Positions 8,845 to 43,540 of a stretch of DNA of 43,679 bases are shown in pieces. Position numbers and translations under genes: made by a program. Each line of letters begins with the position of its first letter. The first letter of the stretch is position 1. The stretch lies in the IMG/VR virus record IMGVR_UViG_2711768009_000009; one strand, written 5' to 3'. The notes under the pieces were generated by a model. The model did not search any database and had not been told where the DNA came from. It saw only the letters and a program-made list of their open reading frames with translations. This DNA is from a virus. Lineage: Duplodnaviria; Heunggongvirae; Uroviricota; Caudoviricetes.

Positions 8845-9411
8845 TCACGGTACTTTTGGTGACGGAGCTGGTGAGGCAGGAAAATAACGATAAAGGGTGG
8901 AAAGGCCAATATCAAATATCAGTGCGATTTGTTTACGGGACTCGCCATTAGCCAGCAAACGGGCGATTTGCTCCCGCTCTTTCTCTGTCAGTTTCTGAGG
9001 TCTGCCGCCATGACGCCCCTGAGCACGGGCAGCAGCAAGACCCGCGCGTGTACGTTCAATAATGAGTTCCCGCTCCATTTCCGCCAGCGCGCCCATTATA
9101 TGGAAAAAGAAACGTCCCATGGGAGTGGATGTATCAATATTGTCCGTAATGCTGCGGAAGTTAACGCCGCGTTGCCGGAGTTCTTCTGTTAAAAGGACAA
9201 GGTGCTGCATACTGCGTCCAAGGCGATCCAGTTTCCAGACCAGCAGGGTATCCCCTGGCCGGAGTCGCTTTAATGCGCGTTTAAGTCCGGGACGCTCCCT
9301 TGTCTTACCGCTTATTCTGTCTTCGAAAAACAGCTCACATCCTGCACATTCCAGCGCATTTCTTTGTAGCGCCGTATTCTGGTCATTTGTTGACACCCTG
9401 ATATACCCAAT
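8845..9411 (-). CDS. gin: Gin/Hin/Pin-family serine DNA invertase (188 resolved codons; start codon lies in the adjacent N-run)
   Basis: IGYIRVSTNDQNTALQRNALECAGCE...VWKLDRLGRSMQHLV...MGRFFFHIMGALAEMERELIIERT... is a near-canonical Gin sequence with the catalytic Ser motif. Confidence 0.9.
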   Translation of the reverse strand: MGYIRVSTNDQNTALQRNALECAGCELFFEDRISGKTRERPGLKRALKRLRPGDTLLVWKLDRLGRSMQHLVLLTEELRQRGVNFRSITDNIDTSTPMGRFFFHIMGALAEMERELIIERTRAGLAAARAQGRHGGRPQKLTEKEREQIARLLANGESRKQIALIFDIGLSTLYRYFPASPAPSPKVP

Positions 9412-9668
9412 NNNNNNNNNNNNNNNNNNNNNNNNNNNNNNNNNNNNNNNNNNNNNNNNNNNNNNNNNNNNNNNNNNNNNNNNNNNNNNNNNNNNNNNNN
9501 NNNNNNNNNNNNNNNNNNNNNNNNNNNNNNNNNNNNNNNNNNNNNNNNNNNNNNNNNNNNNNNNNNNNNNNNNNNNNNNNNNNNNNNNNNNNNNNNNNNN
9601 NNNNNNNNNNNNNNNNNNNNNNNNNNNNNNNNNNNNNNNNNNNNNNNNNNNNNNNNNNNNNNNNNNNN
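9412..9668. other. Unresolved sequence (257 N) at the expected gin-proximal inversion crossover site
   Basis: N-run directly upstream of gin and adjacent to the alternative tail-fibre segment. Confidence 0.9.
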
Positions 9669-9871
9669 CCGCCATAAGACTGGGGTCGGTGACCGCACAT
9701 ATGCCCGGAACATGGGAAAGCTGGGATCTGAATCTGGGGGGCGGCAATGTTCTTACCGGAATTAAAGTACAGGATGTCGGTAAGAATACGGCAGATAACG
9801 TCGGCGGCGTGTATTACCGGCCGTTGCAGTATCTGTTAAATGGAGCATGGGTGACGGCTGCAAGTATATAA
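9669..9871 (+). CDS. Alternative tail-fibre C-terminal segment (S'v-like), 66 resolved codons on the opposite strand; silent in this orientation
   Basis: Post-gap part of ORF 9062..9871; ends ...NVGGVYYRPLQYLLNGAWVTAASI*; convergent with the S/U genes, as expected for the second variable cassette of an invertible segment. Confidence 0.4.
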
Positions 9872-9879
9872 TGATATTC

Positions 9880-9899
9880 AGAAGGCCTTCCGGCCTTCT
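9880..9899. terminator. Hairpin between convergent S'v fragment and tail fibre assembly gene (stem AGAAGGCC/GGCCTTCT, loop TTCC), T-rich on the plus side
   Basis: Perfect 8-bp stem with 4-nt loop, followed by TTATTACTG on the plus strand. Confidence 0.5.
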
Positions 9900-9902
9900 T
9901 TA

Positions 9903-10424
9903 TTACTGTGGCTGCTCAGGCCATTTAATGGCGTTAAATTCAGCTTCTGTTTTAATGGCGGGTAGTTCCATTTTCTTCACCTGACTGATGTATGCCATCC
10001 ATTGGGTAAGTGCTGCTCTGTCTTCATCGCTGATGGTGCCCAGTTGTAGCTCCGTTCTCCAGTCATTAATTTTTTCATATGCCTGATTAAGATATGACTG
10101 GCGCATTGCTTCCAGTTTTCTTGCGTAGTTAACCGGAATACGGGAGATTATGCCATTATCAAACTTCCAGTTTCCTGAAATATCCGTGCCTTCAGGGAGT
10201 TCATCGACCTCAACCACAGAAAACCCCGCAGGATACAGCGCCGAGGCGTCCTGTGATATTGAGCAGATAACGCCGCTGTCAGGTGTTATGCAAAGTTTAT
10301 ATTTTTTGGTGAATAATGGCAGGGATTCGTAGAAATCCTTACCATCTTCACTCTGGAAATACTGAACATTATTACCATATGGCATATTTTCAGGATAATA
10401 ACGGGTTATATTTTTTAGTTCCAT
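9903..10424 (-). CDS. Tail fibre assembly protein (Mu U-like), 173 aa
   Basis: ORF track; immediately downstream of the tail fibre gene; GGAGG RBS; size and position as for Mu U. Confidence 0.75.
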   Translation of the reverse strand: MELKNITRYYPENMPYGNNVQYFQSEDGKDFYESLPLFTKKYKLCITPDSGVICSISQDASALYPAGFSVVEVDELPEGTDISGNWKFDNGIISRIPVNYARKLEAMRQSYLNQAYEKINDWRTELQLGTISDEDRAALTQWMAYISQVKKMELPAIKTEAEFNAIKWPEQPQ

Positions 10425-10475
10425 AAAATCCTCCTGGAAATAAATCTGTTTTAAAATATATTATTTACTGACTAT

Positions 10476-11392
10476 TTATAACTGAGATACCGTAATCCAT
10501 GTACCTCCGACTAATTTTTGCAGGGGTCTGAATGCTATAAAATCGTTTGAAGCATCAACTTTACTGTCAATCTGCAGGCCTGCCATAACATTACCGTACG
10601 CAGAGTAATATGCCCCACCGTACATTACCTGCCTGTTCTCTGCTCCCAGCCTGATATCCTGGATATATCGGGAATCCGCATCCTGCTGTGTTATACCAGA
10701 AGTGATGTTTATGTCCTGCGTCCCGTCAAAGGGAACCCCATTAATATTTCTTGGGGTGGCGAGTCTATTCGCGGCAACGGCGGTGCCGTCCGATGGCAGN
10801 NNNNNNNNNNNNNNNNNNNNNNNNNNNNNNNNNNNNNNNNNNNNNNNNNNNNNNNNNNNNNNNNNNNNNNNNNNNNNNNNNNNNNNNNNNNNNNNNNNNN
10901 NNNNNNNNNNNNNNNNNNNNNNNNNNNNNNNNNNNNNNNNNNNNNNNNNNNNNNNNNNNNNNNNNNNNNNNNNNNNNNNNNNNNNNNNNNNNNNNNNNNN
11001 NNNNNNNNNNNNNNNNNNNNNNNNNNNNNNGCGGGACCAAGACTGTTTTTTGTGGCAAGCGTCCCCAGACCAAGATAACCACGGGCCAGACGCTGGGCCT
11101 CCGCACCGGCATCAGCAATTTCTTTCAGGTTATTTTTCCGGGAAAAGGCATTCGCAGCGATAATGGCTTTAATGGACAGCGTAAGCTGGTTTAACTGCGC
11201 CTTATCCGGCTGAATACTGGCTTCAGCCAGAATATTCAGCAGTTCGGCCTGGAGAATATTCAGCCAGTCCTGACCAATCCAGCTGATACCTTTTTGTCCG
11301 TCACCTTCGGTAAACCAGGTGGTGGTATTACTCTGCGCCGGTGCCAGCGCAGGCATATTCGCCACGCCGGAATTATTATCAACATGAAACAT
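10476..11392 (-). CDS. Tail fibre protein (Mu S-like), interrupted by an N-run; constant N-terminal part 11031-11392, variable C-terminal part 10476-10799 in a different apparent frame
   Basis: N-terminal part from ORF track 10709..11392; post-gap frame translates ...AVAANRLATPRNINGVPFDGTQDINITSG...GTWITVSQL*, a tail-fibre-like repeat region ending 50 bp before the U-like gene. Confidence 0.7.
10800..11030. other. Unresolved sequence (231 N) inside the tail fibre gene at the expected constant/variable junction
   Basis: N-run; reading frame before and after is not continuous for this length, so the gap length is probably arbitrary. Confidence 0.85.
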
Positions 11393-25496: not shown

Positions 25497-25576
25497 GTCA
25501 GTGTACGCTTAACTGGTAAAGTCGGTGCCTGCCTCCGGGTGGATCATGTATGCGGGTTCGACCCCCGCCACTGACC
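25497..25576 (+). other. tRNA-like partial cloverleaf in the F-G intergenic region: 7-bp acceptor-type stem plus T-arm with GGGTTCGACCC loop; no anticodon arm
   Basis: GTCAGTG (25497-25503) pairs with CACTGAC (25569-25575); GCGGG-TTCGACC-CCCGC hairpin at 25552-25568. Confidence 0.3.
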
Positions 25577-33038: not shown

Positions 33039-33461
33039 TCAGAAAAGCCGTGGCTGCGTGCGTTCCTGATGCAGGCGACGCTGGTTGCGGATAACGGAGT
33101 AAATCTGCGTCTCTGACATCTGGTAGTGGCGGCGCAGGGTTTCAATTTTTTCGCCCTGGCTCCAGCGGGAAAAAATTTCATTATTGCGCAGTTCGGTGAA
33201 AAGGGATTCACCGACCGGGAGATAATAACCACGCCCGCCCATGTACCCGGCCTGTGCGGCTGCAACCTTACGGGCAAGCATTCCCGCCTGAGCAGGTTCA
33301 ATCCCCTGACGGTGCAGTTCAGCACTGATCACATCAACCAGGTCCCGCAGCGTGCCGGGCCAGTTCTTTTTCAGCTCATCATCAGGAATATCATCCAGAC
33401 GGTCAATCAGCGCGTGCAGCTGTTCGCTGTCACCAAACATGCTCATCTGTGTTTCAGCCAT
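33039..33461 (-). CDS. Mor/C-family transcriptional activator (140 aa); by position and size the late-gene activator C
   Basis: ORF track; C-terminal ...GGRGYYLPVGESLFTELRNNEIFSRWSQGEKIETLRRHYQMSETQIYSVIRNQRRL resembles the Mor/C HTH region. Confidence 0.75.
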   Translation of the reverse strand: MAETQMSMFGDSEQLHALIDRLDDIPDDELKKNWPGTLRDLVDVISAELHRQGIEPAQAGMLARKVAAAQAGYMGGRGYYLPVGESLFTELRNNEIFSRWSQGEKIETLRRHYQMSETQIYSVIRNQRRLHQERTQPRLF

Positions 33462-33503
33462 ACCCGCCTCCGGTCATCATTACACAGGGCAAGTTTAAAA
33501 TAA

Positions 33504-33527
33504 AAATCCCGCGCTGTGGCGGGATTT
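33504..33527 (-). terminator. Strong intrinsic terminator of the early operon (9-bp stem AAATCCCGC/GCGGGATTT, loop of 6, then U-tract on the minus strand)
   Basis: Minus-strand RNA reads hairpin followed by UUUUUAUUUUAAA; lies between the gemA-like stop and the Mor/C-family start. Confidence 0.6.
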
Positions 33528-33531
33528 GGGG

Positions 33532-34044
33532 TTAACGGGGGAATGATTTTTCATACAGCCTGCAAACACGCTCATAACTCATCACTGCACGTTCCGACAT
33601 ATCCAGGGCTGCCAGCATTTTGCGGCGGTGCCAGCGTTTGAGACGCTCCAGCACATCAGAGGCCAGCGCGGGTTGTTGCTCCAGCCACTGCCAGTTAGCC
33701 ACACCTTCGCCGTCGTTCTGCGCGGCCGTCTGCGATTTCACCCAGCGGTTAAGGGCCGTTTCCCCGCCATCAGAGATAAATCCCTGCCGGTGCATCACTT
33801 TCCAGATGGCGCGAATTTTGGCGGTCACCGTACCCGGTTTTAAGGCCCGGTTAACCGGCTTCTGACGCACTTTAAAACCGCGTTTTTTGAAAACATCCAG
33901 CACGCGGGATAACTCACCGGGTGACATATCACGGCAACTGGATTTGCCGGTGGCTGCCAGCAGCGCGGATGTATAGGTATCATGGTCAAGCTGTAGATCG
34001 CGTTTTGCGACATGTATTAAGGTAATCAGGGAAGCGCGATTCAT
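33532..34044 (-). CDS. GemA-like early protein (Mu gp16 family), 170 aa
   Basis: ORF track; N-terminus MNRASLITLIHVAKRDLQLDHDTY...GKSSCRDMSPGELSRVLDVFKKRGF fits the recalled GemA/DUF1018 pattern; last gene before the early terminator. Confidence 0.6.
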   Translation of the reverse strand: MNRASLITLIHVAKRDLQLDHDTYTSALLAATGKSSCRDMSPGELSRVLDVFKKRGFKVRQKPVNRALKPGTVTAKIRAIWKVMHRQGFISDGGETALNRWVKSQTAAQNDGEGVANWQWLEQQPALASDVLERLKRWHRRKMLAALDMSERAVMSYERVCRLYEKSFPR

Positions 34045-34066
34045 TATCGTGGCTCCATAAAAAATG

Positions 34067-34086
34067 GGCGGTGTTACCGCACCGCC
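34067..34086 (-). terminator. Intrinsic terminator-like hairpin (stem GGCGGTG/CACCGCC, loop 6) with U-tract on the minus strand, upstream of the gemA-like gene
   Basis: Minus-strand RNA reads GGCGGUG-CGGUAA-CACCGCC followed by CAUUUUUUAUGG. Confidence 0.5.
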
Positions 34087-34114
34087 ATGTCAATTAACAT
34101 AAAAGGAAAAATCT

Positions 34115-34354
34115 ATGTCAGATATAAAAAATGCACTTGATGTTGCCGCATTCACAATGGCTGGAAATCTTATGGTAACCCTGTTCGATAAGGGGCTGAT
34201 TTCCCGTGAGGAGGCAATACATATTATCAATCTCGCTCAAAAAAACTCTACCCCGGAAAATGCAGAAGATATCCAGGATGGCTCATATATTAATACCGAC
34301 TGGCATTTCGACAATCTCCGGGCCTGTATGGGGATTACCGCTGAAAAAGATTAA
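34115..34354 (+). CDS. Hypothetical protein (79 aa) on the opposite strand within the early operon; AT-rich moron
   Basis: ORF track; ATG with AAGGA RBS; ~41% GC versus ~55% in flanking prophage DNA; 3' end overlaps the convergent 95-aa gene by 20 nt. Confidence 0.45.
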   Translation: MSDIKNALDVAAFTMAGNLMVTLFDKGLISREEAIHIINLAQKNSTPENAEDIQDGSYINTDWHFDNLRACMGITAEKD

Positions 34355-34622
34355 AAATTTTTGCATAATGTTCAGATGTAAGAATTGCTGAACCATCAAC
34401 ACCGAGCCTACGGCGAACGTATTCCTCGCGGGCTATTTTATTATCCAGAGATACAGCATCCTTAATCAGGTTAATCTCCCGCTCCATTATCAAAAGGGCT
34501 TCTCTGGCTGCAAGATTTTCTTTTATCGCATATTCGATAATGTCCCGCATACGTTCAAGCATGCCGATTTTAGCCAGTTCTTCGTCGATAGATTTAGGCG
34601 CAAATTTGATTTCTTTTTCCAT
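34335..34622 (-). CDS. Hypothetical protein (95 aa from ATG MEKEIKF...), AT-rich island
   Basis: ORF track 34335..34637; GAGGA RBS; start codon 1 nt after the stop of the zinc-ribbon ORF. Confidence 0.5.
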   Translation of the reverse strand: MEKEIKFAPKSIDEELAKIGMLERMRDIIEYAIKENLAAREALLIMEREINLIKDAVSLDNKIAREEYVRRRLGVDGSAILTSEHYAKIFNLFQR

Positions 34623-34623
34623 A

Positions 34624-34767
34624 TTATTCATCCTCACAATTTATACATGCAGTGTCGTCGCCCATATCGCAGTGGTTACATTTTATCTCACCACAATGTG
34701 GGCACTCTTTCAGATACTCCGGGTCCTCATTTCCACAGGTGGGACATTCAACAATTTGCTCATCCAT
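34624..34767 (-). CDS. Small zinc-ribbon protein, 47 aa with four CxxC pairs (MDEQIVECPTCGNEDPEYLKECPHCGEIKCNHCDMGDDTACINCEDE); below the ORF-track length cutoff
   Basis: Hand translation of the minus strand; ATG overlaps the stop of the upstream 110-aa gene (ATGGATGA) and its stop sits 1 nt before the next ATG. Confidence 0.55.
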   Translation of the reverse strand: MDEQIVECPTCGNEDPEYLKECPHCGEIKCNHCDMGDDTACINCEDE

Positions 34768-35092
34768 TATGTATCCCCTGTAATTCCGGCAAGGCCGAAA
34801 GATGGCACCAGTGCGTCACCTGTCCGTCCTCATCTTCAAGGCAGGCTCCGGTTTCTTCATCAATAAAAAAGCCTTCATACCCCATATGGCCGATGCGCAG
34901 TTCCTGTTGGTCACCATACTGAACAATCAGCACGACAGCCTCCATATCAGGCGGAAATGCGTCATCCAGTGAATGCCAGGGATAACCGCGCAAATCCCCG
35001 AAATAAACGCCGGTCAGCGTTCCGCCACAGAGCGGCATTCCGGCGGCACACACAAGAGGTTCATCTGATTCAACAAATAAGGTCGTTATCAT
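34760..35092 (-). CDS. Hypothetical acidic early protein (110 aa)
   Basis: ORF track; translationally coupled to neighbours. Confidence 0.5.
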   Translation of the reverse strand: MITTLFVESDEPLVCAAGMPLCGGTLTGVYFGDLRGYPWHSLDDAFPPDMEAVVLIVQYGDQQELRIGHMGYEGFFIDEETGACLEDEDGQVTHWCHLSALPELQGIHNG

Positions 35093-35640
35093 GGCGTTAA
35101 CTCCCGTAATACAGCGTCCTCGGCAGTCCGGCGACGGTAATAAACTGCGTGAGCAGAATGTTCAGATATTCCAAACTTTTCGCCAATTTCCCGGAATGAC
35201 AGACGGCGTGGGTAATCGGAATCACGCAGCTCACGTATAAGACGTACATCATCATCAGATATGCGCGTGCCGGGGCGTAACTCTCCGCACTTTGTTAATC
35301 CAGCACCAATCATTCCTGCCCGACATCTGACAGAATCTTTATTACGTCCGAGATATTCTCCCATTTGCTGGCAGGTCATTGTTCTGGCATTTTTTCGAAT
35401 AAACTTATCTTCATCAGGTGTAAATCTTGGGTGTTTATATTTCAGTAACTCCGGGTATGAACTGCGCAATACACCAGTCCGGTTATATACAGCCCAGACA
35501 GTTCTTTTTATTCTGGCAGCAATATCCTTAACCGGGGTGGATGAATAAAGCGCAATCAGCAGCGCATCTTCTTCAGGTGTCCACGGACGGACATGAGCGG
35601 GGGCGCGACCTTTTAGTCCCATGGGTTGTAATTTCATCAT
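35089..35640 (-). CDS. Putative DNA-binding early protein (183 aa): two Myb/SANT-like repeats plus C-terminal Mor/C-like HTH
   Basis: ORF track; WTPEEDALLIALY...IAARIKRTVWAVYNR and FTPDEDKFIRKNARTMTCQQMGEYLGRNKDSVRCRA repeats; C-terminal LSFREIGEKFGISEHSAHAVYYRRR. Confidence 0.5.
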   Translation of the reverse strand: MMKLQPMGLKGRAPAHVRPWTPEEDALLIALYSSTPVKDIAARIKRTVWAVYNRTGVLRSSYPELLKYKHPRFTPDEDKFIRKNARTMTCQQMGEYLGRNKDSVRCRAGMIGAGLTKCGELRPGTRISDDDVRLIRELRDSDYPRRLSFREIGEKFGISEHSAHAVYYRRRTAEDAVLRELTP

Positions 35641-43020: not shown

Positions 43021-43344
43021 TCACCTGGTTATATGTCGCCAGTCGATACCTTCCAGCAGCATCGCCAGCTGCGCCTGTGTAAGGAACACTTTGCCATCAC
43101 GGGCTGACGGCCAGGCGAAGCGCCCACGCTCCAGCCGTTTGGTCAGGAGGCACAGTCCGTCACTGGTGGACCACAGCAGTTTAACCTGACTGCCGCTGCG
43201 GCCCCGGAAAATGAAAACATGGCCGGACATGGGATCGTCTTTCAGCGCCGTCTGTACTTTCGCAGCCAGGCCGTTGAAGCCATTTCTCATATCGGTGATA
43301 CCGGCAACCAGCCAAATTTTGATCCCGGAAGGTAACGGGATCAT
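43021..43344 (-). CDS. tnpB: IS66-family TnpB (orf2), 107 aa, C-terminus probably altered by the prophage junction
   Basis: ORF track; MIPLPSGIKIWLVAGITDMRNGFNGLAAKVQ...HVFIFRGRSGSQVKLLW...GLCLLTKRLERGRF is a canonical IS66 Orf2 sequence. Confidence 0.85.
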   Translation of the reverse strand: MIPLPSGIKIWLVAGITDMRNGFNGLAAKVQTALKDDPMSGHVFIFRGRSGSQVKLLWSTSDGLCLLTKRLERGRFAWPSARDGKVFLTQAQLAMLLEGIDWRHITR

Positions 43345-43540
43345 CGCTTCAGTTCCTGTATCAGCAGAGTCAGGAGCTTTTCGCTGACATTGCCATTGAA
43401 GCGGAGCGTCCCGTGCCGGAACGTTACCTCACAGCTGATACTGAGGGTTTTCGGGTCCTCTGCGAGCGATTCTGGCTGTTCGGCAGCTGCATCGAGAGTC
43501 ACAGGAAGTAGCTGGGGGCTCTCTGAAGAAGGTAATAGCT
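43024..43540 (-). mobile_element. IS66-family element remnant (tnpA 3' part plus tnpB); 5' end replaced by the IS3-family end, 3' side interrupted by the Mu-like prophage
   Basis: Same element and orientation as the tnpC fragment at 3765-4265. Confidence 0.6.
43341..43540 (-). CDS. tnpA: IS66-family TnpA (orf1), C-terminal part only
   Basis: ORF track 43341..43571; the first ~10 codons of the listed ORF lie in the IS3-family terminal repeat. Confidence 0.55.

Follow-up and report, generated by a model that had tools for sequence, protein, structure and literature searches.

The AT-rich island at positions 34115-34767 of the window (the whole stretch of 43,679 nucleotides analysed here) is, with near certainty, the prophage's copy of the gp13-gp14-gp15 block of bacteriophage Mu. 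It is a member of a known, uncharacterised family and not a new kind of element. All three reading frames of the island are under purifying selection, and the convergent layout of two of them is conserved together with two hairpins. The best explanation, which we hold at a probability of roughly 0.6, is an accessory block of the semi-essential early region that consists of two transcription units.

Location, gene content and composition of the island

The window covers a segment of the E. coli chromosome with a Mu-like prophage of ~38.6 kb, whose early operon lies on the minus strand. A diguanylate cyclase gene served as the insertion site, and the two halves of this MASE1-domain gene, split by the prophage, were located at 1862-4411 and 43033-43679. 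The minus strand of the island carries a gp13-like double zinc ribbon, orf47 (34624-34767, 47 codons), and a gp14-like gene, orf95 (34335-34622, 95 aa). The gp15-like reverse-strand gene orf79 (34115-34354, 79 aa) is encoded on the plus strand, and its 3′ end overlaps that of orf95 convergently by 20 nt (34335-34354), exactly as a first, sequence-only reading of this DNA had described. Upstream of the island is a 110-aa gene (34760-35092, minus strand; phrog_6925) which is translationally coupled to orf47. The conserved downstream neighbour is gemA of the gp16 family (33532-34044, minus strand; Pfam GemA, E = 2e-28), followed by mor (33039-33461, minus strand; Pfam Mor, E = 7e-31).

The GC content of 34115-34767 was 41.8% compared to 52.8% for the whole window and 55-56% for gemA, mor and the lysozyme gene, and GC3 was 0.35-0.42 in the island versus 0.59-0.64 in the same three genes. 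The comparison of GC and codon positions with the neighbouring genes, which had been proposed as a check, hence bore out the AT-rich island, although the prophage itself averages about 53% GC and not the ~55% first estimated. The GC dip is real, yet not extreme. Among 653-bp stretches the island ranked at the 7.8th percentile, the prophage has lower-GC patches elsewhere, and the 183-aa gene upstream of the island is likewise low in GC3 (0.375). GC reaches its minimum in the prophage, 0.28, within 8851-10971, a stretch with genes for a recombinase-family protein, a truncated tail protein and a tail-fibre assembly protein that looks like an invertible tail-fibre segment. Elsewhere in the prophage, RefSeq lists a 'tRNA-OTHER' at 25497-25576 (plus strand), on the strand opposite to the head genes, with the virion morphogenesis gene on one side of it and the minor head gene on the other. 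ARAGORN returned zero tRNA over the whole window.

Correspondence with the Mu block

In the Mu genome NC_000929 (Mup13-Mup15) the order is gp13 (E14), gp14 (E15), a reverse-strand gp15 overlapping the 3′ end of gp14, gemA and mor. The window shares this gene order, the strands and the position directly before gemA-mor. Also alike in the two genomes are the TAA-N-ATG junction between the ribbon and gp14, the 70-nt gap from the start of the reverse gene to gemA, and the stem of the gemA-proximal hairpin. The two copies differ in other respects: the ribbon N-terminus is 6 residues long in the window and 19 in Mu, the overlap between gp14 and the reverse gene is 20 nt in the window and 62 nt in Mu, and the window has a deeper GC dip and a stronger T-run after the gemA-proximal hairpin. 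The reverse proteins belong to different PHROGs (32893 in the window, 8747 in Mu) and are alignable over the N-terminal 45 residues only. The 183-aa and 110-aa genes, which lie between the gp12 homologue and the ribbon, are present in the window and not in Mu. Finally, gemA and mor overlap in Mu, whereas they are separated by 70 nt in the window. A strong terminator-like hairpin with a T-run was identified in this gap (33504-33527, minus strand; dG -13.5, z -4.6), and mor in the window may need read-through or a promoter of its own.

By tblastn, homologues of orf47 and orf95 were found side by side in Mu, D108 and related Yersinia phages; in SfMu a single gene separates them. The block is located directly upstream of gemA-mor also in SfMu and D108, with the reverse ORF left unannotated in D108.

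The zinc-ribbon gene orf47

The first reading had noticed a 47-codon ORF with four CxxC pairs at 34624-34767 that was missing from the ORF track, and this gene is present as described. The pairs are C8xxC11, C22xxC25, C30xxC33 and C41xxC44, and the product fits the CxxC-x10-CxxC-x4-CxxC-x7-CxxC pattern with the DMGDDTAC motif of Mu gp13 and phrog_5584. The PHROG profile search matched orf47 to phrog_5584 with E = 3e-26, and residues 20-60 of Mu gp13 were 88% identical to orf47 in a tblastn search of phage genomes. Two zinc sites are predicted from the Cys pattern and from weak generic zinc-ribbon matches in Pfam. PGAP called orf79 and orf95 but never orf47 in seven RefSeq copies whose annotation was examined, of which five are full-length (93-100% identity); other gene callers do call orf47.

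The ATG of orf47 overlaps the stop codon of the 110-aa gene by 8 nt (ATGGATGA, 34760-34767). The start/stop overlap had instead been placed between orf47 and the 95-aa gene, where the junction is TAA-T-ATG with a 1-nt gap, and an overlap would arise at that point only if the GTG at 34637 starts orf95. The two genes are nonetheless tightly packed, and their translation is probably coupled.

The three frames of the island were intact in related copies down to ~92% DNA identity, with purifying selection in each of them. All eight Cys of orf47 were kept in the E. coli copies at 92-100% DNA identity, and its pN/pS among close copies was 0.23, the joint-lowest of six frames. Between the window and Mu, the ribbon core gave a pN/pS of 0.09 (pS 0.70), lower than the 0.30-0.73 obtained for gp11, gp12, gp14, gemA and mor. 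No other protein of the region is as constrained as the ribbon, the one whose gene RefSeq omits. At the DNA level, too, this segment was the portion of the block most widely conserved among E. coli genomes. The protein has a net charge of about -12, and this acidity together with the strong constraint suggests that the ribbon binds a conserved partner. The ribbon is an optional part of the block, as it is not directly upstream of gp14 in SfMu or in the lineages L021, L023 and L025.

A ribbon homologue of 50 aa with 55% identity was detected in the lytic Klebsiella phage Kpn BU9 (L012, 3501-3653). It is tightly packed between the gene of a 264-aa uncharacterised protein and that of a PD-(D/E)XK/DUF2800 exonuclease, in a replication/recombination cluster with an ssDNA-annealing protein gene and a polymerase gene nearby. 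A gp13-type ribbon also makes up the C-terminal 40-55 residues of phrog_6418 (231 aa), where it is preceded by 175 N-terminal residues; this family was considered as a gp12-gp13 fusion, and the gp12 homologue gave no match to phrog_6418. The Lar zinc ribbons (TIGR03655) are likewise small, phage-encoded and of the Cys4 type, whereas orf47 has eight Cys rather than four and is strongly acidic. Assignment of orf47 as a Lar restriction alleviation protein was rejected, its TIGR03655 score being 12 bits (E = 0.2) against a cut-off of 39.6 bits.

The gp14-like gene orf95

The product of orf95 was matched by phrog_6075 with E = 5e-44 over positions 1-95 of 100 and is 48-49% identical to Mu gp14. Its location between the ribbon and the reverse ORF is that of gp14 in Mu. 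Among close copies, orf95 had a pN/pS of 0.24, the lowest of six frames. The AF2 model (pLDDT 86.9) consists of four helices and gave no specific fold match. The gp14 family is small, with 19 representatives among the 1.84 billion covered by an exhaustive profile search. Three fragments excepted, these representatives are 88-121 aa long, and neither fusions nor an extra domain were found in the 19.

The reverse-strand gene orf79

The relationship of orf79 to Mu gp15 became apparent by profile methods, as pairwise BLASTP of the two proteins detected no relationship. The orf79 protein was matched by phrog_32893 (E = 1e-45), and Mu gp15 cross-matches the same family at E = 6e-4. Alignment of orf79 with Mu gp15 by hhalign gave a probability of 94.5% over the N-terminal 45 residues, and hmmsearch likewise related the two. 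Intermediate sequences in other prophages and the unannotated reverse ORF of D108 bridge orf79 and Mu gp15, and the reverse ORF of lineage L017 matched all three PHROGs 8747, 32893 and 38610. The D108 ORF (L014, ~7905-8282) is ~118 aa long, carries the gp15-family motif (GNLMIKLIENGVI...) and fills a 376-bp gap between gp14 and gemA that appears 'empty' in the annotation.

All eight lineages have an open reverse ORF, 73-92 aa long, with an N-terminal motif common to them, and an AGGA/GGAG motif is located 5′ of its start in each lineage. In the window, the Shine-Dalgarno sequence AGGAA, as read from the sequence, is found at 34104-34108 (plus strand), 6-10 nt before the ATG. The pN/pS of orf79 was 0.28, the lowest of six frames, with values of at least 0.58 on the minus strand. 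The C-terminal half of the gp15 family is variable and fast-diverging. The orf79 model was of moderate confidence (pLDDT 70.7), showing a helical hairpin and a disordered linker, and gave no specific fold match. A sigma-70 scan for an orf79 promoter returned chance-level matches only. Inspection by eye of both strands of the 70-nt gap gave weak promoter candidates only, one of them on the minus strand with CTGACA (34121-34116), a 17-nt spacer and GTTAAT (34098-34093).

Frameshifted forms of orf79 were found in four small protein clusters (P0005, P0008-P0010), and the intact form dominates. The frameshifts occurred at differing points of the variable middle, one of them in or beside an A7 run, and all four continue in one common alternative frame, of which 61 codons are open in the window (34206-34391, plus strand). 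Other opposite-strand ORFs were observed between gemA and mor in L002 (1748-2170, plus strand, 140 aa) and in L025 (1682-2029, minus strand, 115 aa). Genes on the reverse strand are therefore a recurring feature of the gemA surroundings.

Two public records of Mu are in conflict at Mu positions 7896-8162, where NC_000929 has the reverse-strand gp15 and the updated AF083977.1 a forward-strand gene, Mu_54 (7960-8127). No PHROG family was found for Mu_54, unlike for gp15. The comparative sequence evidence favours the reverse-strand gp15 over Mu_54.

Two hairpins associated with the block

The hairpin T2 (34405-34444, plus strand) is terminator-like with respect to the orf79 transcript and consists of 30 nt (34405-34434) with the tail ATTTTATTAT. 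It is embedded in the orf95 codons NKIAREEYVRRRLG. Its form is AGCY-N22-RGCT followed by a T-rich tail, 25-55 nt past the stop codon of the reverse gene, and it was found at the same place in seven of the seven lineages examined. T2 coincides with invariant residues of the gp14 family, in the codons for N-K-x-A-R...R-R-x-L-G. Among ten distinct sequences, 95.6% of the cells were paired, compared to 37-49% in slid controls, and three pairs showed compensatory changes; the structure tested was derived from these same sequences and lies within conserved codons. The conserved gp14 codons could by themselves yield some of the T2 palindrome. The copy in the window is weakened by an A-C mismatch (dG -10.8, z -0.95) and is no stabler than shuffled sequence, and the support for T2 as a putative terminator in the window is comparative and does not come from the stability of its own copy.

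The hairpin T1, GGCGGTG-N6-CACCGCC with CATTTTTTAT (34057-34086, minus strand), was detected by the terminator scan between the start of orf79 and the Shine-Dalgarno sequence of gemA. It was called as a terminator in the window (dG -13.2, z -2.3). The stem GGCGGTG/CACCGCC, with differing loops, is present also in Mu, SfMu, D108, L018, L020, L021 and L025, and L017 and L023 have different stems, yet still a hairpin at the T1 position. T1 is followed by a strong T-run in the window type and in L023, and by a weak one in Mu. A 'semi-early promoter' is marked across the T1 region in AF083977.1. The T1 dyad was also considered as a site for a Mor/C-type activator and was rejected as such, being too near either start codon for a site centred near -43. 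A search of 33400-35200 against Rfam gave no match in the island.

Age and distribution of the block

The pS between Mu and the window was 0.66-0.81 for all six genes compared and 0.69-0.70 for the block. As synonymous sites are saturated between the two, the block is old and no recent arrival from a Mu-type donor, and its recurrence at a fixed position is a further reason to consider it old. The gp14-like gene, the convergent overlapping reverse ORF, the hairpin and gemA follow one another in L017, L018, L020, L021, L023/L024 and L025, and the layout was held in every readable contig of the gp14 relatives recovered by the exhaustive profile search. The convergent overlap is 20-98 nt across the lineages (20 in the window, 32-98 in the others) and the gap from the start of the reverse gene to gemA 65-91 nt, and the order is invariant though the proteins are only 25-60% identical. 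Seven lineages were measured in addition to the window, and in five of them the GC dip accompanies the module; it is milder in Mu.

The distribution among E. coli is patchy. The block version of the window is carried by 14 of the 229 complete E. coli genomes sharing the 110-aa gene, and some detectable part of the block was found in 51 of 5426 genomes. In related prophages this slot is filled by other small genes, unrelated to the block, which makes the block an accessory cassette that is exchangeable within a variable region.

Searches for function

Pfam and NCBIfam searches with the three proteins and their neighbours returned only sub-threshold generic zinc-ribbon matches, and a PADLOC search with six proteins gave no family at E ≤ 1. 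A PDB sequence search gave no significant relatives, and a word-indexed protein search gave close E. coli relatives only. The remote homology and structure prediction suggested at the outset thus recovered the relatives of Mu gp13, gp14 and gp15, but no fold match for orf95 or orf79. Neither homology nor fold searches give a biochemical role, in keeping with the initial statement that function cannot be assigned from the sequence. A toxin-antitoxin-like module, one of those first put forward as examples, has no support: the genes are convergent, an atypical layout for such a pair, and Pfam, NCBIfam and PADLOC gave no significant match. A known defence module is likewise unsupported by these three, the PADLOC models giving no match to a known anti-phage defence system.

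A literature search found no functional study of Mu gp13, gp14 or gp15. The function of the semi-essential early genes of Mu is described as 'largely unknown', GemA as molecularly uncharacterised, and gem as reportedly expressed even in lysogens (PMC3820752, PMC12407980, PMC8705779, PMC4553209).

Proposed mechanism and alternative explanations

If the block does consist of two transcription units, the gp13-like and gp14-like proteins would be early accessory proteins, expressed from the early promoter when the prophage is induced. The orf79 gene is probably an autonomous reverse transcription unit, and it would be expressed in the lysogen, where the early operon is off. On induction, antisense early transcription across the whole reverse gene would shut it off. 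The reverse transcript, for its part, would be antisense to the final 90-150 nt of the gp14 mRNA and, together with T1, might limit leaky early read-through into gemA-mor. The three proteins may act as small binding modulators, the ribbon having a conserved and probably host target. That the arrangement works as a switch or insulator is a tentative suggestion, and insulation is not essential because prophages without the module have gemA fused directly to the upstream genes. Mor is the activator of the middle operon. In the most far-reaching version, which we consider unlikely, a conserved state switch or insulator at the gemA-mor entrance would be built from the gp14/gp15 pair and both hairpins, with the reverse gene on in the lysogen, where it would block leaky transcription to Mor, and silenced on induction. 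The reverse protein could then match an unmapped semi-essential function of Mu such as cim, 'control of immunity', and the acidic ribbon would bind a conserved host protein.

Of the other explanations, the one with most to be said for it is that the three genes of the island are early accessory genes that act independently, without regulatory ties among themselves or with gemA-mor. The hairpins would then be ordinary terminators or mRNA-stabilising stem-loops, and the overlap incidental. The Kpn BU9 ribbon occurs without gp14 or gp15, the ribbon is not directly upstream of gp14 in several lineages, gemA-mor is still present in prophages without the module, and the length of the overlap varies from 20 to 98 nt, all of which fits such independence. 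Against it stand an order of gp14, reverse ORF, hairpin and gemA that stays invariant at 25-60% protein identity and the coincidence of T2 with invariant gp14 residues, and we regard it as possible but the less plausible account. A denial that orf79 is a gene at all, taking it as a frame that happens to be open opposite non-coding or forward-coding DNA, is implied by AF083977.1, which drops gp15 and annotates the forward Mu_54. The frameshifted variants, the negative promoter scan, the moderate model confidence and forward-strand stop-free stretches of 50-110 codons agree with such a denial. The forward stretches, however, have no common conserved start or sequence, while the plus frame has the lowest pN/pS (0.28 against at least 0.58 on the minus strand) and the reverse ORF is open in all eight lineages with its N-terminal motif and a Shine-Dalgarno sequence. 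Three PHROG families cross-link on the reverse strand, and Mu_54 is without one, so that a chance frame is very improbable.

The sequence-only reading had seen in the compositional contrast and the opposite-strand gene a recently acquired moron, a cassette for anti-defence, superinfection exclusion or toxin-antitoxin put into the early operon by horizontal transfer. Part of this stands: the composition is distinct (low GC and low GC3), the cassette is swappable, and the reverse gene looks autonomous, with a terminator-like element belonging to it. The presence/absence survey also fits, with the block in only 14 of 229 related E. coli prophage carriers and unrelated cassettes in the slot elsewhere, and the C-terminal half of the gp15 family diverges fast, as in arms-race genes. 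However, Mu, D108, SfMu and distant Mu-like prophages carry this module at an identical site, synonymous sites are saturated and the low GC goes along with the module; PADLOC, Pfam and NCBIfam are without match, and the convergent genes have no toxin-antitoxin layout. Recent acquisition is thereby largely refuted and the explanation as a whole improbable, although this evidence hits the recency only and not an anti-defence or exclusion function as such. The Mu accessory block with two transcription units is accordingly the reading we prefer.

Significance and comparison with known systems

Although Mu ranks as a classic model phage, the semi-essential genes of its early region are largely unexplained. 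In this prophage lineage, the most strongly constrained protein of the region is encoded by a 47-codon gene missed by RefSeq, and the evidence for the reverse-strand gp15 bears on a disagreement between two public annotations of Mu. The conserved layout of convergent genes and hairpins beside gemA-mor is directly testable in Mu. Should it prove regulatory, transposable phages would have one more point of control over the passage from early to middle transcription.

In phage lambda, the short convergent oop RNA overlaps the 3′ end of the early-operon gene cII. The gp14 and reverse-gene pair resembles oop/cII in its convergent overlap, which by analogy would offer a route to mutual down-regulation. 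Unlike oop, the convergent transcript predicted here would encode a conserved protein.

The morons of lambdoid phages are autonomous promoter-gene-terminator units found in some relatives only. They carry a promoter of their own, whereas the scan for a promoter of the reverse gene gave only matches at chance level. The reverse gene is moron-like in its distinct composition, in being missing from many related prophages and in having its own terminator-like element. It differs from the lambdoid morons in that it is old, has a fixed position across Mu-like phages, and has its putative terminator hosted in a gene of the early operon.
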